Positions 7,978 through 44,415 of a stretch of 56,394 bases of DNA are shown piece by piece; the stretch's first letter is position 1, and each line of letters begins with the position of its first letter. The DNA is from an uncultured virus (IMG/VR IMGVR_UViG_3300031587_000158) (Duplodnaviria; Heunggongvirae; Uroviricota; Caudoviricetes). The notes under the pieces were generated by a model. The model searched no databases and was not told the DNA's origin. It saw only the letters and a list, made by a program, of their open reading frames with translations. The translations under genes and the position numbers were made by a program. The stretch is taken from the IMG/VR virus record IMGVR_UViG_3300031587_000158, one strand, 5' to 3'.

Positions 7978-8277
7978 ATGGTGGGGAAAATGAATGATAA
8001 GACTTTGGAGGAAGCGCATGTAATCTTGCATCCGATTCGCTTCAGGATAGCGGAACTACTTATTGAGAAGCCTATGCACATCAATGAAATAGCCAAAACG
8101 CTGGGAGAAGAAAGACGACTGGTTACTTACCATCTACAGACTTTGGAAGATTTCGGATTTGTAGGTAGCAAGTATGAGATATCAGAAGCACCAAAGTCAA
8201 GGGGGAAGGCAATCAGGAAATACTGGGCGACTGATAAAGTCAGTAAAACGCTTGAGCACATTAAAGGAAAACTTTAA
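7978..8277 (+). CDS. ArsR-like winged HTH transcriptional regulator
   Basis: LHPIRFRIAELL..KPMHINEIAKTLG...VTYHLQTLEDFGFV; paralogous to 22864-23157. Confidence 0.85.
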   Translation: MVGKMNDKTLEEAHVILHPIRFRIAELLIEKPMHINEIAKTLGEERRLVTYHLQTLEDFGFVGSKYEISEAPKSRGKAIRKYWATDKVSKTLEHIKGKL

Positions 8278-8897: not shown

Positions 8898-9506
8898 ATG
8901 AATCGCTATTTAAACGAATTCTTCTCATTACGTTGTGCCGGTGATATTCTTAATGTAACTGGTAGTATTCATAATGGACCGAAAGAGATAACTGAAGCGA
9001 TGAGTGTTCGCAGGATACTCAAAGACTTCTCATTACAAGAGAAGATGACATATCATGTTCTTGATTTATGTGCAGGGAACGGGTTGCTGGGTCTACTAAC
9101 TGCCTTTACCTTACCGGTTCTATCGGTTACCTCTATTGATATAAGACCTCGTAAGTTAAATACATCGGGAGTGAGAAACTATTCCTATCAAATCAAAGAT
9201 CTCATGCGTGATGAGATAGAAATAAAGCCCCCTACGATCATCTGTGCTATACATGCATGTAGAGAGCTAGCAGAAAGGAGTATTGAGTTATACTTAACCA
9301 ATGGTAGTGCGAAGAAACTCGTTCTCATGCCTTGTTGTTCGCTTAAACATTATCAAAGACCAACATCTCAGCCCTGGATACTTGAAAGAGTGCCAAAATC
9401 AGTACAGTGGGTATGGTACTTGGCTGAGAAGGCAGGTGGTGTATTTCACGAGGATAAATCAGTCTTATCACCGATGAATAAGATTATTATTGCGGAAAAG
9501 GATTAA
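8898..9506 (+). CDS. Class I SAM-dependent methyltransferase (Methyltransf_32-like, possibly RNA-directed)
   Basis: VLDLCAGNGLLG SAM motif, SIDIR, AIHACRELAE and LVLMPCC motifs. Confidence 0.7.
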   Translation: MNRYLNEFFSLRCAGDILNVTGSIHNGPKEITEAMSVRRILKDFSLQEKMTYHVLDLCAGNGLLGLLTAFTLPVLSVTSIDIRPRKLNTSGVRNYSYQIKDLMRDEIEIKPPTIICAIHACRELAERSIELYLTNGSAKKLVLMPCCSLKHYQRPTSQPWILERVPKSVQWVWYLAEKAGGVFHEDKSVLSPMNKIIIAEKD

Positions 9507-10471: not shown

Positions 10472-11008
10472 ATGTCACAAATGGAACGGTGGTTAGGATA
10501 TTTGGCAGGAGTTATTGACAGTGAGGGAACAATACATGTAAACTACAACAGATACAAAGACAGGATTTTTTATTTTAAGGTATTCACCGCCATCGGAAAT
10601 GAGTCTCCGCTATTGATTGAAAGATGTATTCTAATAATCAGAGAAGCAGGGGTAGAAGTTCCAAAAGGCACTCCCTATGTTTTAAAAACCAAATCTGGGA
10701 ATAAATTTTACAAAGTTACAATTTCTAACCAAGAAGAAAACTATAAGCTTTGTAAAGTGATTAAGGGCTATTTAGTATCTAAAAAAGAACTATGTGAGTT
10801 AGCGCTCGAATTCCTTTCAAGTAGGAAAGAAAAGAGGAGAGCGAGAGATGGTTCTGGTAGATTTACTTTTTCACCGTATTCTGATGAAGAGCTTTCAATT
10901 CTAAGGGAGATATATACTTTGAACAGAAGAGGAAAGAGAAAGAGGCTTGGAGAAGGTTACTTAATAGAGCTGCAAAAGAAAAATGAGCAAAGAAAAAGGG
11001 TAATATGA
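10472..11008 (+). CDS. LAGLIDADG homing endonuclease, single motif, free-standing
   Basis: N-terminal YLAGVIDSEG motif and basic C-terminus; AT-rich TATA-like sequence just upstream. Confidence 0.8.
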   Translation: MSQMERWLGYLAGVIDSEGTIHVNYNRYKDRIFYFKVFTAIGNESPLLIERCILIIREAGVEVPKGTPYVLKTKSGNKFYKVTISNQEENYKLCKVIKGYLVSKKELCELALEFLSSRKEKRRARDGSGRFTFSPYSDEELSILREIYTLNRRGKRKRLGEGYLIELQKKNEQRKRVI

Positions 11009-11826
11009 AAAAGAAAAGAGTTGTTGCATTACATTTCACGGATTTATGCAATATGCTTCCTCCGTGCCCATTTTGTTACCGAAGGAGCAGGGGAGAAGAT
11101 AAACGGTCTCTATCGCAGTCATTTCTCATTGATATGGTGCCATTTTTAGCCGAAATTACTGAGCAAGTAGCTTGCGGTGGTGGTGAACCATATATGGAAC
11201 CTGAATTCATTGAAGATTTCAGTAAAGTCTGTGATGATTATGATCTTACTGTTAATGTTACGACAAATGGATCACTACCCGATAGAATCATCAAATACTC
11301 AAAATATGTCACAATGGTCTCAGTATCTTACGATAGCGCAAAATGGAGGACCATACAAGATTTTATGCTCACATTACACAAATTGCGAGAGCATGGTCTG
11401 AGATTAGGTGTAAATCTCTTAGTAGAGAAGGATACTTTTAGCCCACCCTTAAAGTTTGTGTCGCTTGTGGATTTATTCTTGCAGGAGGCAGAGCGAGTTT
11501 TTGCATTATTCCCAAAACTAACCTATTTCGTCCCCATCCTGGATTATAGAATGTACTACCTCTACCTCACGTTGAAGCACAAACATTTCTATATCGACGA
11601 TGCAACCTATTCAATACTCTGTAATGAGAGCTACAATGAGTGGAAGTCTCCCTGTCATTTTGGTAAAGACATCGTGAGTATAAACCCGCGAGGATATGTT
11701 ACTGGATGCTCCTTTGATGGAGAGGATAAAGCTGTTCTCAAGCTTGATAAACCAAGTGATCTACTTAAGATCAGGGACCTCGAGTTCGAGGAGAGATTTT
11801 CGTGCCCCCACATTCTTGTTACATGA
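11005..11826 (+). CDS. Radical SAM protein with CX5CX2C cluster motif
   Basis: CNMLPPCPFC, GGGEP, VTTNGS, VSVSYD; C-terminal C..G...INPRGYVTGC twitch-like motif. Confidence 0.85.
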   Translation: MKKKRVVALHFTDLCNMLPPCPFCYRRSRGEDKRSLSQSFLIDMVPFLAEITEQVACGGGEPYMEPEFIEDFSKVCDDYDLTVNVTTNGSLPDRIIKYSKYVTMVSVSYDSAKWRTIQDFMLTLHKLREHGLRLGVNLLVEKDTFSPPLKFVSLVDLFLQEAERVFALFPKLTYFVPILDYRMYYLYLTLKHKHFYIDDATYSILCNESYNEWKSPCHFGKDIVSINPRGYVTGCSFDGEDKAVLKLDKPSDLLKIRDLEFEERFSCPHILVT

Positions 11827-12913: not shown

Positions 12914-13925
12914 CATCCTATCGAGGGACTTTTGTAATGACAGAAATTGACAAGTCAAAACTTCTACGATTCCCTGGACTTGATAGTAGTACAACCGAAG
13001 CTTACTATGACGATACTTATATCTACCTTTTCAGCAAAGATGATGGGCACCTCGCTTGGAAATTTAATCGTCGCACAAACAAAACCGAATTTGAGTGTGA
13101 ATGTATTAAAAAAGGAAAAATGATATTTAGTTTACTTTGGAGGTAAAATAATGGATCTAACGAAACGGCAGCAGGAAATATTTGAAAAAGTGAAAGCCGA
13201 TTGGGGAAAGAGGGTCGGTGCAGGGAACGTGAATGAGGATACACTAAAAAGAATAATTGTAGACGCCGATACTGACGGTGATGGCTTTAAACGAGTGCAG
13301 AAAGTAGGATCTAAAAAAACTTACCTTGTCCCGATTGAGGACATATTACTAATTGGTGTACGGGTTACTGACTTGGAGAAATATCCAACGGAGGAGCAGC
13401 AATGAAGGTTAATATCTCCATTCAGAGCGAACAGCTCTCTAAAGAAGATCTGCAACTTTTACTCCAATACATTCGAGATTGCGAGCAAAAGAACTTCCCC
13501 GATAAGGAAATACATATCACTATTGATGCTCCCGATATGAGTGCCGAAGAAATTAAAGAAATCTTAACCGAAATAAAACCTCCCCTAAAATATGGTCCAT
13601 TTACCATTACACTATAAAATAATCTTCCTGGTCAAGGAGAATGAAAACATGCCAATATGGGAATTAAGTCCGGCAAATAATGAGAAGATAGTGATTTCGC
13701 TAGATGCCGATACGCGAGAAGCGGCAACCACTAAGGCTGAGGAAATGTATCCGCAGTATAAAAGGTGGATATGCAAGAAAGGTGGATCTTCTGATATGGA
13801 AAAGAGGGAGACAAAGGTTGAGACCCCTAAAAAGGAGATAAAAGAAGGGGGGAGGATAAAACCAAAAGCTGTTAAGAAGAAGGAGACGGAAATAATAGTA
13901 CTGGACATGTAGGAATGTTGCGATA

Positions 13926-13944
13926 AAGTAACACAGTACAGTCG
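13926..13944 (+). promoter_or_regulatory. CRISPR mini-leader motif, copy 1
   Basis: AAGTAACACAGTACAGTCG abutting repeat 1; 13 of 19 positions identical in all three arrays. Confidence 0.7.
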
Positions 13945-14303
13945 GTTCCGTGGCAACTATGATAAGAGTTGACCGTCATGTGAAATTAAAGAGGCCACGG
14001 ATCAACACCCGGTTGTTCCGTGGCAACTATGATAAGAGTTGACCCTGTCTCTTTGATTAGCCGCTCGTATTCCTTTTCATCGTTCCGTGGCAACTATGAT
14101 AAGAGTTGACCCTCTAACTGACTGCTTTTTATACATCGTTTATCAATCAGTTCCGTGGCAACTATGATAAGAGTTGACCAATAATATCCTTGAGAAGTTT
14201 TGTCCACCTCTCCTTCGTTCAGTAGCAACCATGATAAGAGTTGACAAGCTGCACCTGCACCAAAGCATCCTTTTGTTCAGTATCAACGATGATATGAGTT
14301 GAC
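13945..14303 (+). CRISPR. CRISPR array 1: six 29-bp repeats, plus a degenerate seventh at about 14340-14368
   Basis: GTTCCGTGGCAACTATGATAAGAGTTGAC at 13945, 14015, 14082 and 14150 (identical), variants at 14217 and 14275; unique spacers of 29-41 bp. Confidence 0.95.
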
Positions 14304-14441
14304 TCTTTATATCCTAAATGGTTCGTATATACTTCCCTTGTCATGGACATCTATAATATGAGTTAGACTCTGAGTAGCTCTTCTGATTTGCCATTTTTCT
14401 ATATTCAGCTATTTAAATTCAAATGATAGCTTTTTAGAGGG

Positions 14442-14792
14442 GTGATGAAGATGAAGACAAAAAGCTGGATACAGGATTTCATACCCGACCTGCTTGATCG
14501 GAAAATATCACTCGAAGAGGTCAGGAGAATAAGGGAGAGAGAAGTGGGGCATCCGATCAAGTTGAAAACCATAGCTAGAGCCATAAACACGATGGGCTAC
14601 TCAGTAGCGGGTATGGTCAGGGACATATGTGTATCCGAGATGCCAAAAACTGAACCTATGTTTTCGGGGAATTCAGTCTGCCGTGATTGCAGATTCTGGA
14701 AAGCGGGGATATGCATAACACCGAAACAGACAACGGCTGGATGGCTTGATAGGTTTGATGAGGGTTTCTGTCCCTTGAAGGAGACGGTTTAG
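14442..14792 (+). CDS. Hypothetical protein, possible HTH plus Cys cluster
   Basis: SD GGGGTGA; ISLEEVRRI..IKLKTIARAI and CRDCRFW...C motifs. Confidence 0.55.
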   Translation: MMKMKTKSWIQDFIPDLLDRKISLEEVRRIREREVGHPIKLKTIARAINTMGYSVAGMVRDICVSEMPKTEPMFSGNSVCRDCRFWKAGICITPKQTTAGWLDRFDEGFCPLKETV

Positions 14793-15074
14793 GTGAACAT
14801 GAAGAAAAAGGTACAAGTTTGTATGTTCTGTGGTGTTGAGATGAAGCTGGAAATAGCTTCACCAAACGAAATGTATGGTGCAGATGATCCTTTTGGTTAT
14901 CGAAGAGGACCGACAGGAGATACATACTGCCCAAAATGCAGAGGAGGGAATTGCGGTGTATCAATACCCCTTACCCAAAAGGACATAGAGAATTTGCGTG
15001 ATTGGTTCAAGCACAACCCGCAAGACTTAGAGAAATGTATTCCTCTCATACAAGAGACATTTAAGAATGGATAG
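14793..15074 (+). CDS. Zinc-ribbon hypothetical protein
   Basis: CMFCG and CPKC motifs. Confidence 0.6.
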   Translation: MNMKKKVQVCMFCGVEMKLEIASPNEMYGADDPFGYRRGPTGDTYCPKCRGGNCGVSIPLTQKDIENLRDWFKHNPQDLEKCIPLIQETFKNG

Positions 15075-15166
15075 AGGAAATGTTAAAGACAATAGTGATT
15101 TATCTAATCTTAATGGGATTTGCATATCTTCTTTACAGAATCACCAAATGGTATAGGAGATAAGAC

Positions 15167-15427
15167 ATGGGAATAAGTAAGGTTCTATGCAAGATCCTTG
15201 GTCACAATTATCATTTTCAAAGACGAGTTACAATCTTAGGGGATAAGGGTTATTTCACGGGATTTGAATATAAATGTATAAGATGTTACGATACATGCTA
15301 CTTACCGTGGTGGGCTCTACCACCGAGAAGATGCTTTTGTTTAAAGGAGCGTTTAAAAAATTATCGAATGAGGAGATGTCTAAGAGAAGAAGTGATTGAG
15401 AGAGATGATAAAAATTGTAGACTATGA
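15167..15427 (+). CDS. Small Cys/His hypothetical protein
   Basis: LCKILGHNY...CIRC motif, same type as the 640-891 protein (KCFFGFH...CSRC). Confidence 0.55.
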   Translation: MGISKVLCKILGHNYHFQRRVTILGDKGYFTGFEYKCIRCYDTCYLPWWALPPRRCFCLKERLKNYRMRRCLREEVIERDDKNCRL

Positions 15428-15761
15428 GAGAGAAACAGGCAATATAAAGCTTGAGTTCGAGAGCGAGACAGTCGTAAAGACCACCATCAATAATCTGATG
15501 GACATATGCGTAAGGTTGCATAGTTTACACGGTACTAAAGAATGACTGAATACATAGACATCCGGGGTTTGTCGGATGAGGAGAAGTTTAAGTGGTACGA
15601 GAGGATAGGGAAGGATGCTAAAGGTGTTGAGTTGAGAGAGCATGAAAGCGGCTTCCCAATAATAACGATTGACTACCAAGATATTCACTTGCTGACCGAC
15701 GTATTGAGTGTTGAGGAATGGTGGAAGAGGCAGAGAGTAATAGCTCTATGAGAAGATAAAA

Positions 15762-17627
15762 ATGAAGATATGCTTTTTCGGAGCCACAAAGGAGGTTACG
15801 GGATCTTGCTTCTTGATAAAAACGTACAAATCCAGTTTTCTCCTTGATTGCGGTCAGCGACAAGGACCTGATGAGGAAAAATTACCTCGATTTCAATTCA
15901 ATCCGAAAGAAATAGACTTTGTTATCCTCTCACATGCCCACATTGACCACTCAGGTCTTTTACCAAAGATGATTGCCGAGGGGTTCGATGGTGAGATATA
16001 CTCAACTGTAGCTACCAGAGATGTTGCTGAGCTGCTTCTGAAGGATAGTGCGAAGATTCAAAAGGAGGATGTGGAAAAAGGAAAAATTCTGCCTCTGTTC
16101 ACCGAGAAAGATGTTACTGAAACGATGGAGAAATTCACTGTTTCAGAATGGGATACTCCTATTGAGACCTCTCACGATGTTACAGTAACATTCCTTGATG
16201 CAGGGCATATATTGGGTGCAAGTATCTCGATTATTGACATCGCGGGAGTTGGAAGGGTAGTTTACACTGGTGACATCGGACATGGACGTTCGCCCCTGAT
16301 GAATGCACCTGTAAAGTTAAGCAATGCCGATTATCTGATAATCGAATCTACTTACGGTGCAAAGCAGCATCCGTTCTTTTATCCTAAAGAAGAATTGAGA
16401 CAAATAGTACAGGATACCTATAACAGCAAGGGTAAAGTTCTAATTCCTGTATTTGCTGTGGGCAGGGCACAGGAAATACTTTATCTCTTGAAATTACTGT
16501 ATGATGAAAATAAGCTCCCAAATATACCTGTTTACTTCGATACGCCGTTAGGTCGAGAAGCAACATCTCTTTACAGGCATCACCAGAATTATCTTCGAAC
16601 CGATTTTAGAAGTTCGTTCTTAAAGGGAGGGAATCCCTTTAACTTTGGGACACTCGATTTTGTCAAAGGACACCAGAGGTCTTTGGATATATCCTTATCC
16701 GAAGAACCCTGCATAGTAATGGCAGCCAGTGGTATGCTCACCGGTGGTCGCATACACAACCACTTAAAAAGTACATTGGAAGACACCAATTCAAGCTTGG
16801 TATTCGTGGGCTATCAAGCGGAAGGCACGCCTGGACGAGAGATAATTGATGGTAAGAGAAAGGTAGAAATTGAGGGAAAAGAGTATCAGGTAAAACTTTC
16901 TGTTAAATATATTCAGGGTCTGAGTGCTCACGCGGATACAGACGGTCTATTTGCCTTTGCAAATTCCGCAGAAATACTTCCAAAGAAGATATTTGTGGTG
17001 CATGGTGAACCAGAAAATGCAGAAGCACTACAAGAGAGGATAATAAAAAATCTACGAATTGATACTTGTGTACCTGAAAAGGGCTATATAGAGAACTTTA
17101 TGGAGCGGGAGATTATCAAAGTGATAGTAAAAGACGTGCATCTCGATTTTACACCACAATTCACGAGATTCGATGAGCAGGAAGTCTTTCCCATCGTTGG
17201 AGCACTACTGAGAAAAGAGGATGGCATTCACCTAATCTCGAAGGAGCAATATACGCGGATACTCGATGAAGCGGAGGATAAACTCGGACATTTGTTGGAG
17301 AGGGTAACAGAAAAGAGGGATATTACGGAGGTGGAAGTAGAGGGGACTCCCGAGGAGGAGATGTCAGAGGCAGTATTCAAGGAGACAATGATAAAAGATG
17401 CTCTAAATGGGATTTTGTCCAGGAGTAGGGCTCGAGAGCTTAAACAAATGATTGAAGAGGAGGGGCGAAACGCAACGATAGCACATATTAATAAACTTGC
17501 AAGGAAGGATAGATTATATCCACAGGATAGGGAGAAACAGGAAGAGCTGAGGAAGGTACTCGTTGCAGGTATTAATTCCTTCCCCCAATTGGCTCTTACA
17601 CTACTTAATGAGGTAATAGAGAAGTGA
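15762..17627 (+). CDS. cas14: Beta-CASP metallo-beta-lactamase ribonuclease with C-terminal helical extension; type VII CRISPR effector (Cas14-like)
   Basis: SHAHIDH, AGHILG, YTGD, ESTYG, AVGRAQE, VGYQAEGT, SAHAD and VVHGE motifs; about 170 extra C-terminal residues (LSRSRARELKQ helical region); sits between CRISPR arrays with cas7/cas5 downstream. Confidence 0.85.
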   Translation: MKICFFGATKEVTGSCFLIKTYKSSFLLDCGQRQGPDEEKLPRFQFNPKEIDFVILSHAHIDHSGLLPKMIAEGFDGEIYSTVATRDVAELLLKDSAKIQKEDVEKGKILPLFTEKDVTETMEKFTVSEWDTPIETSHDVTVTFLDAGHILGASISIIDIAGVGRVVYTGDIGHGRSPLMNAPVKLSNADYLIIESTYGAKQHPFFYPKEELRQIVQDTYNSKGKVLIPVFAVGRAQEILYLLKLLYDENKLPNIPVYFDTPLGREATSLYRHHQNYLRTDFRSSFLKGGNPFNFGTLDFVKGHQRSLDISLSEEPCIVMAASGMLTGGRIHNHLKSTLEDTNSSLVFVGYQAEGTPGREIIDGKRKVEIEGKEYQVKLSVKYIQGLSAHADTDGLFAFANSAEILPKKIFVVHGEPENAEALQERIIKNLRIDTCVPEKGYIENFMEREIIKVIVKDVHLDFTPQFTRFDEQEVFPIVGALLRKEDGIHLISKEQYTRILDEAEDKLGHLLERVTEKRDITEVEVEGTPEEEMSEAVFKETMIKDALNGILSRSRARELKQMIEEEGRNATIAHINKLARKDRLYPQDREKQEELRKVLVAGINSFPQLALTLLNEVIEK

Positions 17628-17646
17628 CGAGGGGAGTGATGTGAAA

Positions 17647-17665
17647 AAGTAATACTACATAGTCG
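17647..17665 (+). promoter_or_regulatory. CRISPR mini-leader motif, copy 2
   Basis: AAGTAATACTACATAGTCG abutting repeat 1 of array 2. Confidence 0.7.
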
Positions 17666-18359
17666 GTATCGTACCAACAATGATAAGAGTTGACTTTGAG
17701 TTCTTTTGCTTTGGCTCCTGCCTTCACTATCCCGTATCGTACCAACAATGATAAGAGTTGACTACGGCATGGCGTCAGAAGGGCCAAAATTTTCCTGTCC
17801 TGTACCAACTATGATAAGAGTTGACGTTTTTTATTGGTCCAACCTTCTCGGCATTGCATTGTTGCGTAGCAACTATGATAGGAGTTCCCCAATAATGGCT
17901 GTATTTCAGGCAGGTTTGCTATATCCCGTTCCATAATAACGATGATATGAGTTGACTTTTCCTACAACAGCAAGTTTCAGACGATACTTAGTTCGGTAAC
18001 AACTATGATAAGAGTTGACTGAAAATTAGTTATCTCATCTAAATGAGAAACCATCAATAACAACAATGATAGGAGTTGACACAGTTCCGGCGATTGGGAA
18101 TAAAACATCTTCATACGTTCTTTAACAACGATGATATGAGTTGATACATCATTCCAGATAGGGGCTGTACTAATTTTAATCCGTGCTCCCTTACAGCGAT
18201 GATAGGAGTTGACTTTTGGTATTGGAATGTCTCTCTATAAAGTTTGCGGATAGTAATAACGATGATATGAGTTAATAGATGGACTAGCTTCTTTACTTTT
18301 GGCACGGAGGACTTTTTGGGGTTATTGAGATGATAATAACAACGATGATATGAGTTGGA
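17666..18359 (+). CRISPR. CRISPR array 2: eleven degenerate 29-bp repeats
   Basis: Repeats start at 17666, 17734, 17797, 17861, 17928, 17991, 18052, 18117, 18185, 18248 and 18331; core YAACNATGATADGAGTTGAC; first two identical. Confidence 0.93.
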
Positions 18360-18402
18360 TAGGAAGGATTGAAATAGATAAAGGAAATGGAGTTTGGTAA
18401 AA

Positions 18403-19050
18403 ATGGAAAAAGAATTTGGAAAATACAGATTGGAGATGAGAGCTGTCTCCACTGTTATAAGTGGAGAAATAAAAGAAGAAAGAAGACGAAAAGAGAAGTC
18501 AGGTGTCCACCTACCATGCAGGTTGACAGCAGACGGCAAGGTTGCAGTACCCATTTATGGGGCACTGAGAGGCTATGCGGAAATAGCACTCCGAGCTACA
18601 GGAGAAGAGGTCTGTGATACCGGAGCAAAAGGATCGAAGGGTTGTGGTAGATGCTCCCTCTGTGATCTATATGGATCATTAGGGATGAGAGGCCGAGCGA
18701 TTATAGATGATCTTCGCTCGGAGGAAAACTTCGATAAGGTAGTAAATAAAGTGATGCATGTGAAATTGGATAGGGAAAAGGGAGTTGTAAGTGATTCTCT
18801 GGAAGCAGAAGAGATACAGGAAGGGACTATATTTACAGGGACTATCATCGTTCTTAATCCTCGTGAACGAGATTTGGAGCTAATAAATATAGGGATCCAA
18901 GGAATAAACACATTTGGTCTTGGCGGATGGTTGACAAGGGGGAGAGGTCGAGTTGAGTTGAAAATAGTGAGTGCTGAGAGGATATCTTGGGCCTCTCTAG
19001 TAGAGGAAGCGAGGAAGCGGGTGAAAGAACTGGTAAAAACCAAGAAATAG
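18403..19050 (+). CDS. cas7: Cas7-family RAMP backbone protein
   Basis: IYGALRGYAE helix, zinc-binding CDTG...GCGRCSLCDLYGS, HVKLDRE, and G-rich loop GLGGWLTRGRGRV; ATG 18403 preferred over TTG 18394. Confidence 0.9.
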   Translation: MEKEFGKYRLEMRAVSTVISGEIKEERRRKEKSGVHLPCRLTADGKVAVPIYGALRGYAEIALRATGEEVCDTGAKGSKGCGRCSLCDLYGSLGMRGRAIIDDLRSEENFDKVVNKVMHVKLDREKGVVSDSLEAEEIQEGTIFTGTIIVLNPRERDLELINIGIQGINTFGLGGWLTRGRGRVELKIVSAERISWASLVEEARKRVKELVKTKK

Positions 19051-19063
19051 GGGTAGTTACGGG

Positions 19064-20080
19064 GTGCATCCAATGAGCACTGATAATATAGCAGTGGAGG
19101 TTACAGGGGATTTAGTGAACCTTAATGAGACGATTCTATCAACCGGAGAACTTGATAGCAGAACGCATATGATGACGAGCCATAATTATCCTCCAGGACA
19201 AGTCCTGAGAGGTGCTTTTGGGCACCTCTTTTTCGTAGCAAATCTACCGATAATAAAGACATACGAAATAAATGCAGAGCCTGTTCTTTACTTCAAAGAT
19301 GCATTACCGCTCCACTGGCGAGATGGTGGTATCTTATTCCCGACAATCGTAGATGGGAAGTTTGTCAATTACCAGTGTCAGGTATGCAAGGAGATCTTAA
19401 GGTATGCCTCCTTCAAATCAATGATTACGAGAACGAGATTAGATAGACATAAGGGGACCGTATCGATGATGTGGAGACAGGAAGGGATAACACAAAGAAC
19501 ACAGTTTAGATTCAGAGTGATCGTGAAGCTGAAAACTGATATAGAAGATAATCTCAGTGCTTTATTCGCAGTATTAAGTTTCGTGGAGGATAACGGTCTT
19601 TCACTAGGAAAACGATCAATGAAGGGCAGTGGAAAATTCCGGCTGGATAATCTAGCCTATAATCTGGTTACGAGGGAGGATATAGACAGGAGGGCAAAAG
19701 AACTTCGAGAGAAGGAGGTGATGAAGATCAGGTTACTATCTGATGCCATAGTAAGAAAACAGGGGACAAATCTCACTATAATCAAGGGTGATGATTTCCT
19801 CTGGAGTGTGAAGAATGCTGCCAAGAATTTCAATTACGATTACAAACCCTTCTCGGCAGAGGTAAAGCTCATAGACACCCAGACAACAAAACCATATCCC
19901 ATAGGATTTCTGGACATCAAGGGACAGTATGAGATAGCGATACCAAAAGGGTCAACGTTCACTTACAGAATAGCTCCAGGGGCATCAGAAGACTTTTATA
20001 TTGCACTAGCATTACTCGAACGGTGTCATGGTATAGGCAATAGATCCTCTTCGGGGAAGGGGGAGATAATAATAGAATGA
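19064..20080 (+). CDS. cas5: Cas5-like RAMP with two RRM units (Csx10/Csm4/Cmr3-like)
   Basis: PPGQVLRGAFG, TRTRLDRHKGT, G-loops LGKRSMKGSG and GIGNRSSSGKG, AIPKGSTF; alternative ATG at 19073. Confidence 0.8.
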   Translation: MHPMSTDNIAVEVTGDLVNLNETILSTGELDSRTHMMTSHNYPPGQVLRGAFGHLFFVANLPIIKTYEINAEPVLYFKDALPLHWRDGGILFPTIVDGKFVNYQCQVCKEILRYASFKSMITRTRLDRHKGTVSMMWRQEGITQRTQFRFRVIVKLKTDIEDNLSALFAVLSFVEDNGLSLGKRSMKGSGKFRLDNLAYNLVTREDIDRRAKELREKEVMKIRLLSDAIVRKQGTNLTIIKGDDFLWSVKNAAKNFNYDYKPFSAEVKLIDTQTTKPYPIGFLDIKGQYEIAIPKGSTFTYRIAPGASEDFYIALALLERCHGIGNRSSSGKGEIIIE

Positions 20081-20095
20081 GTAGAAGATACTCAT

Positions 20096-20114
20096 AAGTA
20101 GCACTGCATAGTCG
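20096..20114 (+). promoter_or_regulatory. CRISPR mini-leader motif, copy 3
   Basis: AAGTAGCACTGCATAGTCG one base before repeat 1 of array 3. Confidence 0.7.
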
Positions 20115-20115
20115 G

Positions 20116-21110
20116 GTTCATTAACAACTAAGATAAGAGTTGACTTCTGGTGTCCAATCACAGTTCATAGCAATATATCCCCGATCATTAACAACTAAGA
20201 TAAGAGTTGACCCCCATAGCCTATTATGTAGACCGTCTCGCCTGCACTGTTCAGTAACAATAATGATATGAGTTGACCTCTTGAAGAGTATCCAAATTGT
20301 ATCGCTCTTTTATCTCAGCTCTGTAACAACTATGATAGGAGTTATCCCTGAGAGGGAGATATTGTGCAGCAGCGATTTCCTCGTTAGGTAACAACTATGA
20401 TATGAGTTGACCTATGCTTGAAGCACACGTTTTTCGGGGTCGTTAAAAGCTTTGGTAGTTCCGTGGCAACTATGATAGGAGTTGACTGCCCATAACTTCC
20501 ATTTTCTATCATATTAGCCTTCTTTAGTTCAGAACCAACTATGATAGGAGTTGCCCACATAAAATGCCGCCCAATTTCTTTAACTCCGTGCTCTGAATTT
20601 GATAGCAACGATGATATGAGTTGACTTCTATCTATTCTCGCTAAATTCATAGTACATCTATTCGGTGATAACTATGATAGGAGTTAGCTTACTAAATCCA
20701 TAGTATATGAACAAGGATAAACCAACAACGATAAGAGTTGACCGTTAGTTATCCTCCAATATAACCTTCTATCGTCCTCGTTCGGAACCAACAACGATAA
20801 GAGTTGACTAATCAAATCTACGCTTTGGATAAGCTTTTTTGGTATTCAATTACAACCATGATAGGAGTTGATCAATAATTAAACATGAATTCATCTGCTC
20901 AACCATGATAGGAGTTGGCTACGAAGGCGAGTTCGTAGATCCATCCTAGGATCAATAGCAACTATGATAAGAGTTGATGGATTAATAATATCTACCCATA
21001 TATGTTTTCGATGATGCATTCAGTACCAACGATGATAAGAGTTGACTATCGCACCCTTGCCACCTTCACGTCTTCACATTGTCCCATGACCAACAATGAT
21101 ATGAGTTGAC
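20116..21110 (+). CRISPR. CRISPR array 3: sixteen degenerate 29-bp repeats
   Basis: Repeats start at 20116, 20183, 20249, 20318, 20383, 20458, 20527, 20597, 20660, 20714, 20780, 20844, 20891, 20950, 21018 and 21082; spacers 18-46 bp. Confidence 0.93.
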
Positions 21111-21678: not shown

Positions 21679-22854
21679 ATGCACGAAGAATTACCTCCTA
21701 ATGTGGAAGAGGGCGAGATACTTCCCCCTATTGTGAGAATAGGTGACGCTTTTGATCTCATAGATAATCTGAGGGATAACTCAATACAAGCTGTTATTAC
21801 CTCACCACCCTACTGGAAACTTCGCTCCTACTTGCCAAAAGAGCACCCGGATAAACATAAGGAAATAGGGAATGAGGCAACACCTGAGGAATATGTCTCT
21901 AAAGTAGCTGACCTATTTGACTTAATTTGGCCAAAGTTAAAGGATAACGGCACTGCTCATATAGTCATTGGTGATTCTTACATAGGCTCTGATACGGCTG
22001 AGCGAGGGACATGGCGAAAGCCTAAACAAAAGGCTCTGATACCATACAGATTAGCAATAGAACTCCAAAATCGTGGATGGTGGGTATTTAACGATGTTAC
22101 ATGGGCAAAACCAAATCCTCTGTGCGAGAATGTGCGTCATAGATATGCTCGAGCAACAGAGCCGATTTTATATATTAGTAAAAGCGCAGACCCGTACTTT
22201 GATATAGAAGCAATAAAGGAACCCGTTACTGAATCAACTCTAAGACGCTTTATATTCGCAATGCGAAAAGAGGGTGGATACTTGCATAATATACCCGATC
22301 TGAGTAAGGATACAAAGACACTTAGAGGGCTACGGGATCCTGATCGTATTCTAGGGTATCCCTATAAAGTGTCAAGTGCATTCAGGGATTACTGGGAGAG
22401 TTTTGTAGCAATACAAAGAACAAAGCAAGTGACTTTGACAGGCGACCTTGTGGAAGAAAAGGAGTTTAAAGATAAGGATGAAATTGATAAATATGGTCTG
22501 TTAAAGGATGTAACAGATGGAAAAATTAAACATGGTTGGTACTCGAGAGGATATAAAGGAATAGAGCAAAAATCTATAATGAGAAATCCGCGAGATATTT
22601 TTATTGTTGCTCCAAAGAGTTATCATGGGGAGCATTATGCGGTCTATCCACCTGAGCTGATTATTAAACCTATATTAGCATCATCCCGACCAGGCGATTG
22701 GATACTTGATCCTCTGGCTGGTACGGGCACAACGGGAGAAGTTGTCCAAGAATTGGGACGAAATGGCATATTATTCGACTTGAATCCAGGTTTCAAAAGA
22801 CTAATAGTGGAAAGATGTCTACTGGATATGAAGCGAATACGGGATTTTCTATGA
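21679..22854 (+). CDS. Site-specific DNA methyltransferase, beta class (probably N4-cytosine)
   Basis: TSPPY catalytic motif precedes HYAVYP and LDPLAGTGTT SAM motif. Confidence 0.9.
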   Translation: MHEELPPNVEEGEILPPIVRIGDAFDLIDNLRDNSIQAVITSPPYWKLRSYLPKEHPDKHKEIGNEATPEEYVSKVADLFDLIWPKLKDNGTAHIVIGDSYIGSDTAERGTWRKPKQKALIPYRLAIELQNRGWWVFNDVTWAKPNPLCENVRHRYARATEPILYISKSADPYFDIEAIKEPVTESTLRRFIFAMRKEGGYLHNIPDLSKDTKTLRGLRDPDRILGYPYKVSSAFRDYWESFVAIQRTKQVTLTGDLVEEKEFKDKDEIDKYGLLKDVTDGKIKHGWYSRGYKGIEQKSIMRNPRDIFIVAPKSYHGEHYAVYPPELIIKPILASSRPGDWILDPLAGTGTTGEVVQELGRNGILFDLNPGFKRLIVERCLLDMKRIRDFL

Positions 22855-22863
22855 GGTGCCAAG

Positions 22864-23157
22864 ATGCTTGGAAAAGAAAAGACGATGGAAGCTTATGTGC
22901 TTCTCCATCCGACACGGTTCAAGATAGTGGAGCTGCTTGCTGAGAAGCCCATGTACATAGCTGAAATAGCCAAAACGCTAAGAGCTGACAGTCAATTCGT
23001 CATTTCATACCATCTGCGTATTCTAGAAGAGTATGGTTTTCTAAGTGGTAGGTATGAGATCTCAAAGCAGCCGAAGTCAAGGGGAAAAGCAGTTAAGATA
23101 TTTTCGGTTACTGGTAAAGTCGAACAAGTGAAGAGGGTGATGAAGGAGAAATTGTAG
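22864..23157 (+). CDS. ArsR-like winged HTH regulator, paralog of 7978-8277
   Basis: LHPTRFKIVELLAEKPMYIAEIAKTL...YHLRILEEYGF...YEISKQPKSRGKA. Confidence 0.85.
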   Translation: MLGKEKTMEAYVLLHPTRFKIVELLAEKPMYIAEIAKTLRADSQFVISYHLRILEEYGFLSGRYEISKQPKSRGKAVKIFSVTGKVEQVKRVMKEKL

Positions 23158-29251: not shown

Positions 29252-29325
29252 GGGATAGTAGCCAAGCGGACTAAGGCGGAGGTCTCCAGAGCCTCATATC
29301 GTGGGTTCGAATCCTACCTATCCCA
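29252..29325 (+). tRNA. tRNA-Trp (CCA), intronless
   Basis: GGGATAG/CTATCCC acceptor, GCC/GGC D-stem, GAGGT-CTCCAGA-GCCTC anticodon arm, GTGGG-TTCGAAT-CCTAC T-arm, discriminator A. Confidence 0.92.
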
Positions 29326-31523: not shown

Positions 31524-32411
31524 ATGGACGAAATACTGAGCTTAGTTGGTAGAGCTAAAGAACTATTTGGTAATACTCTGCGAGTTGGTGATTTACTTCC
31601 GCATGTTCGTACTCGAAAGAGGGGGGTATATTTATGTCCTCCCCGTGTGAACAAATGGAGAAAACCGCTTAAATTTACCTGGTACTTTCCTAATGATTGG
31701 CTGGTAGGATGTCCTGTTTGTAAAACAGCGCAATGGCGATTTGCTAAATACCGAGGAGGATGGACGTTACGTGCTAGTGGATTAGCATCACATTTAGTGC
31801 CTTTATGTCCAGTTGATATACGTGAAGATTTGTTGATGCTTACTGATTCACGTTTTCCTGAGCAGCTATGCCCCTGGACAATCGATGAGGAAGATGGCAC
31901 TTTTGTAGCCAAAAATGGTAAAGCGAAGCTCATTCTTACCTGCGATTTCTTTAATGCTGGTGACGGCTATCGAATCGTTTTAAGGGAAGGAAATAAGTAT
32001 TGGATGTGTTCAGGAAAAAAAGAAAGAGAGATTATGAGACTAGTAGCTGAACAATGTCCCTCTGATACTAACGTCCTTGTCGGTGGACTTGGATTGGGAA
32101 TAATCGTACTTGAGCTTTGTAAGCAAAGAGTGAAAAACATCCAGATCTGGGAAATCAGCAGGGATATAATCTTATTAGTCTATCCAAGATTATATCGTTG
32201 GTGCAGTAAATACTATCCTGATACCCGATTAGATGTAGTATTAGGTGATGTAAGAGCTGCTACGGGGCATTTTGATTTTGTTTTCTATGACCTCTGGGAT
32301 AGTAACTCATCAAAGCATCAGCCATTGGTCCAGGAGGTTAGAAGCCTAGGTGAGAAGCTCAGCGATAAGGTAATTTGCTGGCAGGAAGATAGTATTATGG
32401 GGAAGGTGTGA
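31524..32411 (+). CDS. Class I SAM-dependent (spermidine-synthase-like) methyltransferase domain protein
   Basis: NVLVGGLGLG, IWEIS, GDV and FDFVFYDLW in the C-terminal half. Confidence 0.65.
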   Translation: MDEILSLVGRAKELFGNTLRVGDLLPHVRTRKRGVYLCPPRVNKWRKPLKFTWYFPNDWLVGCPVCKTAQWRFAKYRGGWTLRASGLASHLVPLCPVDIREDLLMLTDSRFPEQLCPWTIDEEDGTFVAKNGKAKLILTCDFFNAGDGYRIVLREGNKYWMCSGKKEREIMRLVAEQCPSDTNVLVGGLGLGIIVLELCKQRVKNIQIWEISRDIILLVYPRLYRWCSKYYPDTRLDVVLGDVRAATGHFDFVFYDLWDSNSSKHQPLVQEVRSLGEKLSDKVICWQEDSIMGKV

Positions 32412-33910: not shown

Positions 33911-35893
33911 ATGAGAATGGAAAGCGATAAGATGTATTCGAATTTAGTATCAAATATTGAAGGTGTGTTGGGAAGCTATCTATCAAATGGTGAACTTTCA
34001 AATGAAGTGGCTGTAATCGGCGAACAGGCTAAAATCTTTCTTAGAACGATTAAGAGAGAACCTTATAAGCCAAACGAATTACAAACAGAGAGTTTAATTC
34101 AATTAAAGATCATCCGTAATCAAAATCAGAATAAGACCGTGGTAGTTCTACCGAGTGGTGCAGGTAAGACTTATATCCCAGCTTTTGATCTACTGAGCAA
34201 TTATCATGATGAGAGGTTATTATTTATAACACACCGAAATGAGTTAGTTTCACAAACAGTTGAGTATTTTAGAAATATTTTAGGAGATAAAGTAGATATA
34301 GGGGTTTTTAATAGCAGTAGAAAAGATAAGGACGCGAGAATCGTTGTCGCTACCATTCAAACCATATCACGACGAGAGAATCTCGATAAATTCAAACCCG
34401 ATGATTTTCAGTATTTTGTAATCGATGAAATCCACCACGTAGCGGCTAAAACATATCGGCGTGTCTTTGACTATTTAAACTTTGAGTTCTTCTTAGGACT
34501 TACCGCAACTCCTTACCGATATGATGGACAAAACATCTTAGAGTTATGTAATTCTAGCATAGCACATGAGGTTAATTTGAAAGAGGGCATCGAACGCGGT
34601 TTTCTCGTTCCATTTATTTATTACGGGTTATGGGATGACGTGGATTATTCTAACATTTATTGGAATGGCTACAAGTATACCGAAGAGGATTTGAATAAAC
34701 TTCTCTTGATAGATAAGAGAGATGAGGCGGTTATTCGTGAATTTAAAGCTAAATGCGCTGATAGAAAGGCAATTGGGTTCTGTTGTTCTGTGAAGCATGT
34801 CTGGAGGATGGTAGAGAAATTTACAGAAGCTGGTATTAGGTGTGCAGGTATAACCTACAAAGAGAAGAGAGATGAACGAGAGAAGATAATAGATGACTTC
34901 AAGAGCGGTTATATACAGATAATATTCACGCGTGATATATTTAATGAAGGCATTGATTTCCCGGATGTTTCTGCTTTATTATTCCTCAGACCAACAGAAT
35001 CGATAGTCGTTTTCATCCAGCAACTTGGTAGGGGACTTAGACAATCAAAAGGTAAGGAAAATGTCATAGTCCTTGATTTCATAGGTAATTATAGAAACGC
35101 ATTCCTGATCCCTGAATGGCTTGAAGGTAAAAGTCTTAGTGAGATAGAAAGAAGGAGGGAGACGAAGCCTGAATACGAGTATCCACTTGGCTGCGAAGTA
35201 CACTTTGATGCAAAGATTATAGACTTATTTGAGAGACAAAAAAAGTTATTCTTGAATGGTCACTTCATAACTGATGAAGAATTACGAAATGCGTATTTTG
35301 CGTTAAAAGCACTATTGGGCCACCAACCAACTTCGACAGAATTTAATAAATTATCAGGACTATCCATATATCTTGTTTTAAAGACTTATAGATCATGGAA
35401 TGATTTTCTTAAAGCTATGGGTGAGCCTATTAGGCATAAGTATAGGCACTTTAGGGTATCAGATGAAGAATTAACTGACGCGTATCAGAGATTGAAGTCC
35501 GATCTTGGTCGGCCACCGACATCGAGTGAATTTGATAAATTATCTAGGTATTCCAGTGGTAGCGTAAGGAGACGTTTTAAAACATGGGCTAAATTTCTAA
35601 AAGCTATGGGCGAACCTTTTCCTTACAAAATTTATAAGCACCTTAGGACATCAGACACGGAATTAACAGATGCATATAAGAAGCTGAAGTCCGATCTTGG
35701 TCGGCCGCCGACACAAAAAGAATTTTATCGATTAGCGAGTTATTTCAAGAACGCAATTGAGAGGGGGCATTTTAAAAATTGGACTAACTTCCTTAAATCC
35801 ATAGGTGAAACTCCTTCTAAAAGGCAGGGAAGAAAAAAGAAAGGAGTGAATTTTGGGGCTCTGGTGAAGGATAAAAGAAGCAGTACAGTTTAG
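33911..35893 (+). CDS. SF2 DExH helicase (Res-like) with three C-terminal homing-endonuclease-associated-type repeats
   Basis: LPSGAGKT, DEIHH, GLTATP, FNEGID, QQLGRGLR; three roughly 60-aa repeats of D.EL..AY..LK..LG..PT..EF...W..FLK..G. Confidence 0.9.
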   Translation: MRMESDKMYSNLVSNIEGVLGSYLSNGELSNEVAVIGEQAKIFLRTIKREPYKPNELQTESLIQLKIIRNQNQNKTVVVLPSGAGKTYIPAFDLLSNYHDERLLFITHRNELVSQTVEYFRNILGDKVDIGVFNSSRKDKDARIVVATIQTISRRENLDKFKPDDFQYFVIDEIHHVAAKTYRRVFDYLNFEFFLGLTATPYRYDGQNILELCNSSIAHEVNLKEGIERGFLVPFIYYGLWDDVDYSNIYWNGYKYTEEDLNKLLLIDKRDEAVIREFKAKCADRKAIGFCCSVKHVWRMVEKFTEAGIRCAGITYKEKRDEREKIIDDFKSGYIQIIFTRDIFNEGIDFPDVSALLFLRPTESIVVFIQQLGRGLRQSKGKENVIVLDFIGNYRNAFLIPEWLEGKSLSEIERRRETKPEYEYPLGCEVHFDAKIIDLFERQKKLFLNGHFITDEELRNAYFALKALLGHQPTSTEFNKLSGLSIYLVLKTYRSWNDFLKAMGEPIRHKYRHFRVSDEELTDAYQRLKSDLGRPPTSSEFDKLSRYSSGSVRRRFKTWAKFLKAMGEPFPYKIYKHLRTSDTELTDAYKKLKSDLGRPPTQKEFYRLASYFKNAIERGHFKNWTNFLKSIGETPSKRQGRKKKGVNFGALVKDKRSSTV

Positions 35894-40192: not shown

Positions 40193-41209
40193 CTATTTTC
40201 GGCGATAAAGTTGTATTAGGTAGTCTATCAAGCACGAAAACTTCGTGGTTGCAAGAGAGGGGTAGACTGTACAGCCGATGTAGCATAAGTTGCATTTTCT
40301 GGCTTTTTCGCGGAGCCTCTCTGCCTGAGGTGAGTTCCAGATTTCTTTGAGCATTTTCTCCTTGACCGAGCCGATAAAGTTTTCTTTACCGTTCCATTGG
40401 TTACATGGAAATGAGACTTTTCCGTCTGGGTGCACAAATATGCAGGTGTCTCCTGCTCTGCAAGGTATAGCTATTTTATCTTTTAGTAGGTCCAAGAATG
40501 AGCTTGGGTTATAGATTAGGTAGCCTTCTGCTTTTAACTTGGCTATCAATTGGAACATCTCAATGCTTCTGTTCCTTTCTATTGTTAAGTCTGTCGTATT
40601 GTCAAAGTAGAAGACTGGTTGGAAGCTGATACCTATGCTCAGTTTTTTGCATAGTTTTGATAGCCCGATTATATCTCCTTTAGTCGTGTCGCGGGTAACA
40701 GTGGCGCTTATCGTTACTGGAACCTCGTCTTTCACTTTTTGGATACCCCTTAATGATTTCTCGAAAAGTCCCTTCATGCCTCTTTGCTTGTCATGCTTTT
40801 CTCCATTAAAGTAGTCTAGTGATACTGAAATCTCGTCTAGATAAGGCGTAACTGCGTCAGCCTTCTCTTCCAGCAGCAATCCATTCGAGTTCATATGAAC
40901 AATCATACCAATCTCTTTTGCGTAACGAAGAATCTGGGGCAAATCCTCTCTCAATAGGGGCTCACCACCCTCATACGAAACTATACGCACACCTAACTCT
41001 TTCGCCTGGTCAAGAAGATTCTTATGCTCTTCAAGTGTTAGTTCGTTTAGCTGTTTCCGTTTCCACAAGTTGCAGATGCTACATTTACAGTTGCAGCGGT
41101 ACGTGATTTTCACGTCGAGAAAAACAGGTATAAACTTCCCAATGAATGCCAAAAAAGCAATATATAAGATCTTAGCGGCATGTTTCCATACCACACTTCT
41201 AACTTTCAT
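40193..41209 (-). CDS. Radical SAM / SPASM domain protein
   Basis: CNCKCSIC, GGEPLL, NSNG, SVSLD; SPASM CRAG...HPDGKV.FPC...CNLCYIGC. Confidence 0.9.
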   Translation of the reverse strand: MKVRSVVWKHAAKILYIAFLAFIGKFIPVFLDVKITYRCNCKCSICNLWKRKQLNELTLEEHKNLLDQAKELGVRIVSYEGGEPLLREDLPQILRYAKEIGMIVHMNSNGLLLEEKADAVTPYLDEISVSLDYFNGEKHDKQRGMKGLFEKSLRGIQKVKDEVPVTISATVTRDTTKGDIIGLSKLCKKLSIGISFQPVFYFDNTTDLTIERNRSIEMFQLIAKLKAEGYLIYNPSSFLDLLKDKIAIPCRAGDTCIFVHPDGKVSFPCNQWNGKENFIGSVKEKMLKEIWNSPQAERLREKARKCNLCYIGCTVYPSLATTKFSCLIDYLIQLYRRK

Positions 41210-41725: not shown

Positions 41726-43452
41726 GTGATGATTATATGCAAAAATAAATTAAGAAGTTAAAGAAAGAGGTGGATAGTTTAGATTGGTGAAAGAAAGTAT
41801 GGAGGAGAGCATGAGTGAAGAATTTTGGGAAAAGGAAGAGAGGGAAGAAATAGCTTGCTACGAACATGATTTATGGATGAGAGATTTTCTAAAGCGATGG
41901 CAAACGGGATTAATGTCAATAGACGAAGCGAGTAAAGAGATAGCAGAGCATTTTCCCGGATTAGAATATGGTTCTGTGCGAGATGGACTACTCAAATTGT
42001 TATGTGGGGTGTAAAGGAAGGGTGAACATGAGAACTTGTAAATGTTGCGGGAAGGAGTATGATGAGGATACGGTAAGGAGGAGCTTGGGTGCAGACTCAA
42101 GACCTTACCTTTTGGGTTACTGTTCAGCGCGGTGCTATACTCGTGATGTGATCGAAAAGAATAGTGAACCAAAGGAGGTGAAGAGGATATGATGGATAAC
42201 GATGATAAACAATTCTTGTTCATAATATGTGTTGCTTTAGTGGTAATGTTCCCATTTTTGTGTTACCTCTTTATGCATTATATGGAACCATTTGAGACAA
42301 TAAAGTTTGTAGCAACCGTCTACGGCTTTTTTGGGTTAGTGAACCTTTTTATGCTGGGGGTTCCCGCACTCGCCCAATTTTTATTCCCACCAAGTGGGAA
42401 TTGTAATAGAATCAGTAGCGTGCTTATTGAAGAATCGGAATTTATCGATGGATACAAGGAAGCGTCTAGGTACAAATGGAACACGCCCAATGGGAAACCG
42501 CCAAAGTTTGGTGTGGAGTGGATAAGACAGGATGGAATATTGGTAAGGCACGAATATCCGCTCTACTACGATATTATGGGCGAGCCACACGCAAACGAGC
42601 TCTTTGCAATGGATGTGCATCGGTGCAGCCCTGAAGAGGAGCGGATATTAAGAAAGGGTGAATCAAAGGAGGAATAAAGTAAATGGGTGAAGAAGATATA
42701 AAATTCTCAATACTTGAACTCATACAGAACGAGATCATATATTCAGACGAAAAGGGAGAATTGAGAGGTTGGGAGCAACCGAACAATACAATTGTTCTAT
42801 ATGCTGGAAAACCAAATACGGAAGAGGTGGAAGATTATATTCAAACTTTGCACTTTCCCAAAGCAGCAATTCCACGGCTCATCGCATTTTTAGGACGGGT
42901 TAAAGTTCCGTGTACTGAAGCTATGAAATTATTCTCAATGGCATGGAGAGCATCATCTGGGAAACATGCGGAGGCTTATGCGGATTATTTGGAACATATT
43001 GCAGAGTGCGAAGAGTGCATAGCCACTTTCATGCTTACCGATAAGGACATAGAGAGGATTAAAGAGGATGTTAAAGGTTATAGAACTGGGGCAGAGGATA
43101 TAAAGCGATACAAACAAAGAAAGGGTGCAGGTGATGAACGATGCTTATGATTATCATATAAAGCAAAGGAAGTGTGAAGAATGATACATGAATTGGGATC
43201 AAGTGGTGGAGTAAAGATAGTTAATAGAATACAAATAATAGCTGATTTGATGGAAGAGTGTTATCCCTTTTTCGATCCGTGGAGTTGGATAAAAAGGTTG
43301 AATAAGGGCGAACAACATGAGTGAAGAGAACTTGCAAGAGGGATTAGGAGAAGGACTGGTTTGTGCTTTGAAGGTTCTTAAATGTGGATGTATGATAACT
43401 CCAAAAGAAAGAATCTATTGTAAAAAGCATAAAAAGGGTGCAGGTGAGGAGG

Positions 43453-43581
43453 ATGCAAAGCAAACCACGTAAAGCGGTAAGTTTTAGGCCAGAGGGATTA
43501 TGCCCCCATTGCAAAAATCAAGAATGTCCTTTCACAGATAAGGATGGGCAAATAATAATCTGCGAAGCATTCGTAGACTAA
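43453..43581 (+). CDS. 42-aa Cys-rich peptide, copy 1, not in the ORF track
   Basis: MQSKPRKAVSFRPEGLCPHCKNQECPFTDKDGQIIICEAFVD. Confidence 0.7.
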   Translation: MQSKPRKAVSFRPEGLCPHCKNQECPFTDKDGQIIICEAFVD

Positions 43582-43610
43582 AAAGGGTGAGGAGCGTTAA
43601 GATGCAATAT

Positions 43611-44210: not shown

Positions 44211-44286
44211 CCCTCAAAGTTCGATTGGATAGGCGGAGATTCGATAAGAGATACTTCAGCATATAATAAAGGTGCAAGTGATTAAG

Positions 44287-44415
44287 ATGGAAAGCAAACC
44301 ACATAAGGAGGTTAGTTTTAGCCCAGAGGGATTATGCCCTCATTGTAACAATACAGAATGCCCTTTCGAAAATAGGGAGGGGCGAATAATAATCTGCGAG
44401 GTATTCGTAGATTAA
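44287..44415 (+). CDS. 42-aa Cys-rich peptide, copy 2
   Basis: MESKPHKEVSFSPEGLCPHCNNTECPFENREGRIIICEVFVD; ungapped alignment with 43453-43581. Confidence 0.7.
   Translation: MESKPHKEVSFSPEGLCPHCNNTECPFENREGRIIICEVFVD

Follow-up and report, generated by a model that had tools for sequence, protein, structure and literature searches.

A type VII CRISPR-Cas module with three leader-equipped arrays on a large, probably mobile element linked to ANME-1 archaea

Here, we describe a CRISPR-Cas locus (clustered and regularly interspaced short palindromic repeats with CRISPR-associated proteins) at positions 13926-21110 of a 56,394-nucleotide (nt) stretch of DNA from an uncultured virus, the IMG/VR record IMGVR_UViG_3300031587_000158; this whole 56-kb stretch is called the window below. 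Judged from its sequence, the locus is a type VII CRISPR-Cas system as defined in PMC10910872 and PMC12669027. It encodes Cas14, Cas7 and Cas5 and carries three arrays. We consider it probable that the type VII interference module is intact and that the large element bearing it is, most likely, a mobile genetic element (MGE) belonging to ANME-1 (anaerobic methanotrophic; Methanophagales-like) archaea.

The assignment is carried first by the protein of 621 amino acids (aa) encoded at 15762..17627. It scores 947.9 bits against the NCBIfam equivalog NF045584 (cut-off 800) over the full length of the model (1-612 of 612), and this model scores above its cut-off in none of 14 control genomes. Against TIGR03675, the equivalog for the housekeeping RNase aCPSF1, the score is 373.9 bits where 580.2 are needed, and the alignment spans model positions 176-624 only; the N-terminal KH domains are therefore absent from Cas14. 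The protein has the catalytic core of aCPSF1/FttA, made of metallo-beta-lactamase, beta-CASP and RMMBL domains, and differs from them in carrying a Cas14 C-terminal domain in place of the KH domains. Its Pfam domains stop at residue 438, leaving ~183 C-terminal residues, close to the ~170 extra residues given in a preliminary description made from the sequence. The best PDB sequence match is the Cas14 chain 8yhd_H (282 bits, residues 3-583). The four best fold matches of an AlphaFold2 model (pLDDT 84.6) are type VII Cas14 chains; these align over 628-656 columns and generic beta-CASP chains over ~445-465, so the C-terminal domain is of the Cas14 type.

The residues that matter for catalysis are also in place. 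H58, H60, D62, H63, H149 and D171 are invariant in a 23-sequence alignment and align to the metal ligands His62, His64, Asp66, His67, His148 and Asp169 published for Cas14, and the equally invariant Y198 aligns to the published activation residue Tyr198 (PMC13069675). In a quick tree, Cas14 falls in a 19-row clade (support 100) together with rows labelled Methanophagales and Methanosarcinales; the clade is split from generic beta-CASP proteins with support 100, and the terminal branch of the window Cas14 measures 0.18. A grouping with housekeeping aCPSF1 was looked for, and both the sub-cut-off score and the separate clade place the protein elsewhere.

Cas7 matches the Cas7 chain of the same type VII PDB entries with 160.6 bits (E 3.8e-46) and also matches Pfam RAMPs and PADLOC Csm3 models; type VII Cas7 is described as being without the type III catalytic residue (PMC12669027). 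Cas5 matches the Cas5 chain of these entries (E 2e-7) as well as the Cas5_IIId and Csx10 models, and its predicted structure (pLDDT 91.5) finds the type III-D chain 8s9t_A, type VII Cas5 chains and Cmr3 as best fold matches. For each of the three proteins, the best PDB match in sequence is thus its own counterpart among the chains of the solved type VII structures. All three cas open reading frames (ORFs) are intact and keep their catalytic and family-invariant residues. The Cas5 family is rare, with 27 representative clusters among 1.84 billion proteins; because most of its members are 300-370 aa long, the Cas5 in the solved structure, with 240 aa, counts as the short form.

The core proposal of the preliminary description, a type VII system with Cas14, Cas7 and Cas5, was therefore right by equivalog, PDB and fold matches alike. 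Since the three proteins match solved type VII complexes, the system itself is already known: the type was described in 2023, structures followed in 2024-2026, and a 'beta-CASP CRISPR effector' is no longer a discovery. Interest now lies in the carrier, which is likely mobile, in the splitting of the operon by three arrays each equipped with a leader, in a large set of spacers biased to one strand and in a link to mini-arrays on other elements. The locus is laid out as follows.

13880..13944, + strand: leader 1, with the TATA-like TAATAG at 13893 and the motif AAGTAACACAGTACAGTCGG at 13926-13945
13945..14367, + strand: CRISPR array 1, 7 repeats and 6 spacers; the first 4 repeats are identical and the last is strongly decayed
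14442..14792, + strand: small ORF of 116 aa, with a possible helix-turn-helix and a Cys-rich tail (a lead only); no family match
14793..15074, + strand: small ORF of 93 aa, with zinc-ribbon-like Cys pairs, below cut-off in Pfam
15167..15427, + strand: small ORF of 86 aa, Cys-rich, without a family
15396-15545, + strand: possible fifth small ORF, 49 aa, preceding the 69-aa ORF
15542..15751, + strand: small ORF of 69 aa, stopping 10 nt 5' of cas14
15762..17627, + strand: cas14, 621 aa, beta-CASP RNase in residues 1-438 and C-terminal adaptor domain at ~441-621
17600..17665, + strand: leader 2, with TAATAG at 17614 and the motif AAGTAATACTACATAGTCGG at 17647-17666
17666..18359, + strand: CRISPR array 2, 11 repeats and 10 spacers; decay rises toward cas7
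18394..19050, + strand: cas7, 218 aa from TTG 18394 or 215 aa from ATG 18403
19064..20080, + strand: cas5, long form of 338 aa, a Csx10/Cmr3-like two-RRM RAMP
20060..20115, + strand: leader 3, with TAATAG at 20070 and the motif AAGTAGCACTGCATAGTCGG at 20096-20115
20116..21110, + strand: CRISPR array 3, 16 repeats and 15 spacers, followed by a T-rich tract

All genes and arrays between 13926 and 21110 lie on the + strand, with the gene order cas14-array-cas7-cas5. The ORFs and a repeat scan reproduce the order given earlier, namely array 1, small ORFs, beta-CASP nuclease, array 2, Cas7, Cas5 and array 3; the count of at least 33 repeats becomes 34, and that of four small ORFs is essentially correct, the possible fifth aside. 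The statement that the window has no cas10, cas3, cas8, cas1, cas2 or cas6 is upheld: no PADLOC model for any of these, nor for Cas4, matches among 79 window proteins, and a Pfam scan of the window proteins finds none of the six genes. Between array 1 and the 116-aa ORF, at 14405-14450, there is a strong TATA-like sequence, TATTTAAAT, with a purine-rich ribosome-binding stretch, which suggests that the small ORFs and cas14 may have a separate promoter. For the 116-aa ORF, and for a 562-aa ORF of the element, all scores in a protein atlas were below a meaningful level.

The repeat is 29 nt long, with the consensus GTTCAGTAACAACTATGATAAGAGTTGAC, and its 34 copies (7, 11 and 16 in the three arrays) are all on the + strand. 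Conservation over these copies is 90% in the 3' 20 nt and 65% in the 5' 9 nt, compared with 40% in the flanks, and repeats are more decayed the farther they lie from the start of their array. A scan of the window allowing up to 6 mismatches returned two 6-mismatch matches outside the arrays, at 21728 and 22970; we take these as chance, with the repeat family otherwise confined in the window to the three arrays. Minus-strand echoes of the repeat appear 2 nt from the plus-strand matches because the repeat core is partly palindromic. A structured-repeat model was dropped, the hairpin (-3.6 kcal/mol, z -0.2) being no stabler than shuffled sequence.

Each of the three arrays starts 32-38 nt past the stop codon of the gene upstream. 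A 20-nt leader motif, AAGTANNACNNNANAGTCGG, abuts the first repeat of each array; it occurs three times in the window, exclusively at array starts, with 0.00 occurrences expected. TAATAG boxes lie 33, 33 and 26 nt 5' of the motif in arrays 1, 2 and 3, within the final codons of the ORF 13592-13912, cas14 and cas5, respectively; this hexamer has 35 occurrences in the 56 kb. The three leader copies would each provide an archaeal TATA box and a transcription start site near the motif.

The arrays hold 31 true spacers, all different, of 18-54 nt; most measure 34-41 nt, and the odd lengths are 18, 25 and 54. Their purine content on the + strand is 0.41, against 0.58 for the coding strand of the element, and 22 of the 31 are less than 50% purine, compared with 23% of random 37-mers. 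A codon-usage model, trained on half of the element's genes and correct for 83% of 1160 held-out sense 37-mers, called 26 of the 31 antisense to coding sequence (p = 2e-4). The spacers being antisense-like, CRISPR RNAs (crRNAs) would therefore pair with mRNAs of element-like codon usage if the arrays are transcribed along with the cas genes. An antisense bias has been published for type VII spacers, with matches mainly to transposons (PMC10910872). Judging by composition, the targets would be mRNAs of related elements, of transposons or of the host. Within the window the best matches are 13-15 nt long and no spacer matches the element itself; phage and plasmid records gave nothing credible at E up to 1, and 1.13 Mb of other metagenome and database loci gave matches of 15-21 nt only.

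Of the 80 loci kept from a metagenome search with Cas14, only two, L003 and L004, carry the Cas14 C-terminal domain. L003 has a Cas14 that is 72% identical and the same repeat family, in an array that begins ~80 nt past cas14 and runs toward the contig end; PAC2, ELP3 and GDPD genes upstream give it a chromosomal setting, and it differs from the window in these host-type neighbours and in having neither the small ORFs nor an upstream array. L004 is more distant (Cas7 49%, Cas5 38% and Cas14 41% identical) and has a contiguous cas7-cas5-cas14 operon, a long Cas5 of 335 aa and no array of the window's repeat family on its contig. Directly upstream of these genes, at 2578-4296 of L004, is a DDE transposase. 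The cas14-array order is common to the window and L003, not unique to this element, and is unlike the L004 operon.

In IMG/VR, a single-protein query with Cas14 found nothing, and an alignment query found one locus, L002, matched over residues 5-427 only; in phage records there were 13 matching records, none covering 80% of the query. The repeat gave three single copies in IMG/VR, about the number expected by chance, with no second repeat nearby. The locus is present in two DNA runs from two studies, one of which is possibly its source. In the other run the listed pieces are identical, including 13103-13971 and 20099-20626; four single-letter differences are recorded within the locus, and no indels or joints are reported. 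There is no sign of spacer turnover between the runs, bearing in mind that contigs drop rare variants. No RNA run holding the locus was listed.

In the MGE sequence supplement of PMC9894754, a text search located a mini-array with two repeats of the window's family, spaced 72 nt from core to core, on ANME-1 elements derived from IMG/VR. Its carriers are IMGVR0541161 or IMGVR0541155, and IMGVR0541249 (supplement file 5), and the elements are assigned to cluster 347_0, with morphology 'Unclear' (PMC9894754). The mini-array lies directly 3' of a gene's stop codon and is without the window's leader motif.

Compared with the type VII system studied by biochemistry and structure (Altae-Tran et al. 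2023, PMC10910872; PDB entries 8yhd, 8yhe, 8z4j, 8z4l, 8z99, 8z9c, 8z9e and 9j9e), the window has the same three proteins, the same Cas14 metal-binding residues and likewise degenerate repeats; adaptation genes are missing from both, and the spacers of the window, by the codon model, lean the same antisense way. It differs in the length of Cas5 (338 against 240 aa in the solved complex), in its cas14-array-cas7-cas5 order, in having three arrays each with its own leader, and in sequences that are only distantly similar, Cas14 showing ~30% identity in the fold alignment. Type III-D is similar in that the window Cas5 matches Cas5_IIId/Csx10 and 8s9t_A and the window Cas7 matches Csm3; unlike type III-D, the window is without Cas10 or Cas11, and its nuclease is Cas14, not Cas7. 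The arrays and mini-arrays described on MGEs (PMC11656645) share a mobile-element-like carrier with the window, whose element carries a whole effector module and not an array alone; 'type VII' has 0 occurrences in the available listing of that paper. Only one type VII locus is reported among complete genomes (Makarova et al. 2025, PMC12669027). Among the papers listed as matches, none ties type VII or Cas14 to viruses, ANME, Methanoperedens or Borgs, and the supplements of the type VII papers may list such loci.

The gene content of the carrier was read from the 56-kb window. Cas14 is recorded on a contig of 118,394 bp, which exceeds the window by 62,000 nt; with the MCM gene truncated where the window stops, the window is probably the final 56 kb of this contig. 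Among 66 scanned ORFs of at least 90 aa, 62 are on the + strand, and 17 have a Pfam domain above cut-off while 49 do not; ~40 kb of the window consists of one-directional small ORFs. The genes of the carrier include DNA methylases, HNH and PD-(D/E)XK nucleases, helicases, radical SAM enzymes, a DUF5131 phage-type protein and MCM. No core housekeeping gene in the window reaches an NCBIfam equivalog cut-off, and a polyprenyl synthase, an Mrp-type ATPase and a radical SAM/SPASM protein fall far under theirs. MCM, whose gene is cut off at the window end, shares 64-71% identity with MCMs that bear the label Methanophagales or Methanospirareceae, which supports a putative link to an ANME-1 host; a chromosome would fit too. 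A Borg-like element was rejected as a candidate: Borgs are defined by pervasive perfect tandem repeats (PMC9879509), and the 56 kb contain only three short imperfect ones.

PHROG matches were obtained for 14 of the 66 proteins, none of them in the structural category, and the sole virion-type signal is a 16-bit sub-threshold Pfam hint of a tail tube at 42683-43150. In phage records, MCM finds matches of 31-39% identity, from viruses of haloarchaea and of other archaea; in IMG/VR, the helicase and MCM have only 29-32% identical relatives; and the 562-aa protein has no match in phage records. No close relatives of the carrier were found in phage records or IMG/VR. Overall, the carrier is probably a mobile element linked to ANME-1, and its status as a virus is unproven. 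The preliminary description had called the system MGE-encoded and the element virus-like. The former remains likely, given the strand bias, the few Pfam domains and the methylases and nucleases, and the latter is not borne out, none of the 14 PHROG-matched proteins being a virion protein. The use that it put forward, against competing viruses or host transcripts, stays a hypothesis, no protospacer having turned up in the sequences searched.

From these observations a working order of events can be proposed. Each array would be transcribed on the + strand from its own leader, as the TATA-like box 26-33 nt before the 20-nt motif suggests. The pre-crRNA would then be cut within the repeats by an enzyme encoded outside the window, likeliest a Cas6 from the host or from the remaining contig. 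Speculatively, Cas5 itself might be the crRNA-processing enzyme, a thought prompted solely by the RAMP fold it has in common with Cas6. By homology to the solved complexes, Cas5 would cap a 5' handle derived from the well-conserved 3' part of the repeat, and ~7 copies of Cas7 would line the spacer. Pairing with complementary RNA would recruit a Cas14 tetramer through the C-terminal domain, and the beta-CASP site would cut the target RNA, as has been shown for both steps in a homologue whose catalytic residues are conserved here. The window has no adaptation module, and the arrays look static.

Several points weigh against reading the locus as an intact module on an MGE. Decay affects many repeats, in which as many as 12 of the 29 positions are altered, and some repeat-spacer units may be dead. 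The window encodes no Cas6, whereas expression of the studied type VII system included cas6. Glu11 stands where the published activation residue Lys10 aligns, preceded directly by a Lys, and the promoter role of the leaders is one that we infer from their sequence. No protospacer was found in the window, in phage and plasmid records or in the 1.13 Mb of other loci. As for the carrier, hallmarks of virions, plasmid partition or conjugation were not found in the window, nor were att-like or terminal repeats or element ends, and MCM, two tRNA calls, the polyprenyl synthase and the Mrp-type ATPase can equally be read as chromosomal. Some of these features recur in the idea of a decaying relic, whose genes are still open and whose arrays have gone out of use, with repeats drifting free of selection. 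The heavily altered repeats, the spacers of 18, 25 and 54 nt, the missing adaptation module and Cas6, and arrays that are identical, where covered, in two independent samples would suit a relic. Yet the three cas ORFs are intact with their catalytic and family-invariant residues, the drift falls mostly in the 5' third of the repeat and in leader-distal units while the 3' 20 nt stay conserved, the same motifs are kept in all three leaders, and type VII systems that work are themselves reported to have degenerate repeats (PMC12669027); we regard a relic as the least probable of the explanations considered here.

The same module could also lie in a chromosomal variable island of an ANME-1-like archaeon not yet sampled, or in an element that integrated there long ago, and serve ordinary host defence, for instance against transposon transcripts. 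The host-type neighbours of L003, the DDE transposase beside L004, the transposons that published type VII spacers mainly match (PMC10910872), and the MCM, polyprenyl synthase, Mrp-type ATPase and tRNA call at the right end of the window all agree with this. It sits poorly with ~40 kb of one-directional small ORFs that mostly fall outside Pfam, the want of any housekeeping gene at equivalog level in the window, the several DNA methylases and homing-type nucleases, and the long terminal branch of the window Cas14 within its clade. An island is accordingly an unlikely description of the carrier, and equally unlikely as an account of the locus as a whole. Under a further explanation, the element uses the system offensively and silences host transcripts, such as those of host defence genes, rather than those of other MGEs or transposons. 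Antisense-like spacers with element-like codon usage, which a host of similar composition would also explain, and the lack of any spacer matching the element are compatible with such use. No target turned up in the sequences searched, however, and the repeat family is that of the mini-arrays on published ANME-1 MGEs, whose presence on other ANME-1 elements points to conflict among elements; offensive use against the host seems to us improbable.

Some further features of the element lie outside the locus. Two ArsR-type winged-helix paralogues, at 7978-8277 and 22864-23157, are 73% identical over 119 nt and bracket a 15-kb stretch that includes the type VII locus; both give weak matches to the helix-turn-helix part of Csa3/CasR models. 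At both genes the contig depth is raised in each of the two metagenomes, and sequences related to these spots are therefore common there. The 56 kb contain up to four genes for methyltransferases, at 8898-9506, 21679-22854, 31524-32411 and 51742-52341. The second of these, of the N6_N4 type, is just 3' of array 3, and the last is Dam-like, with a gene for a PD-(D/E)XK nuclease after it at 52304-52822. The ORF at 33911-35893 encodes a 660-aa helicase (ResIII and Helicase_C) with three C-terminal homing-endonuclease-associated repeats, and scores 254.7 bits on the PADLOC model of a type IV methyl-directed restriction enzyme. The radical SAM proteins at 11005-11826 and 40193-41209 (- strand), the latter also with a SPASM domain, have weak viperin-like matches of 51-65 bits, far below cut-off. 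A 154-nt direct repeat with 82% identity (43429-43582 and 44263-44416) lies on either side of a DUF6125 ORF at 43743-44210. The tRNA calls are tRNA-Trp at 29252-29325, from ARAGORN and Rfam, and tRNA-Pro at 50906-50990 (- strand, 85 nt), from ARAGORN alone.

Type VII is the newest and among the rarest of CRISPR types, and the locus described here offers a likely MGE-borne copy in methane-oxidising archaea, with 31 spacers that can be matched to environmental sequence and three arrays with their own leaders that should make transcription and crRNA processing easy to map. It also links type VII to the mini-arrays on published ANME-1 elements. We tentatively picture a large ANME-1 virus or extrachromosomal element that carries its own type VII system, without Cas6 or adaptation genes and with three promoter-equipped arrays, to destroy the transcripts of rival MGEs, and whose effectors the mini-arrays of other ANME-1 elements would borrow; this full picture is possible, though doubtful. 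If it is true, type VII would be a weapon in conflicts between elements besides a host defence against transposons. Should the carrier prove mobile and targets come to light, type VII would be counted among the CRISPR systems that mobile elements direct at each other.

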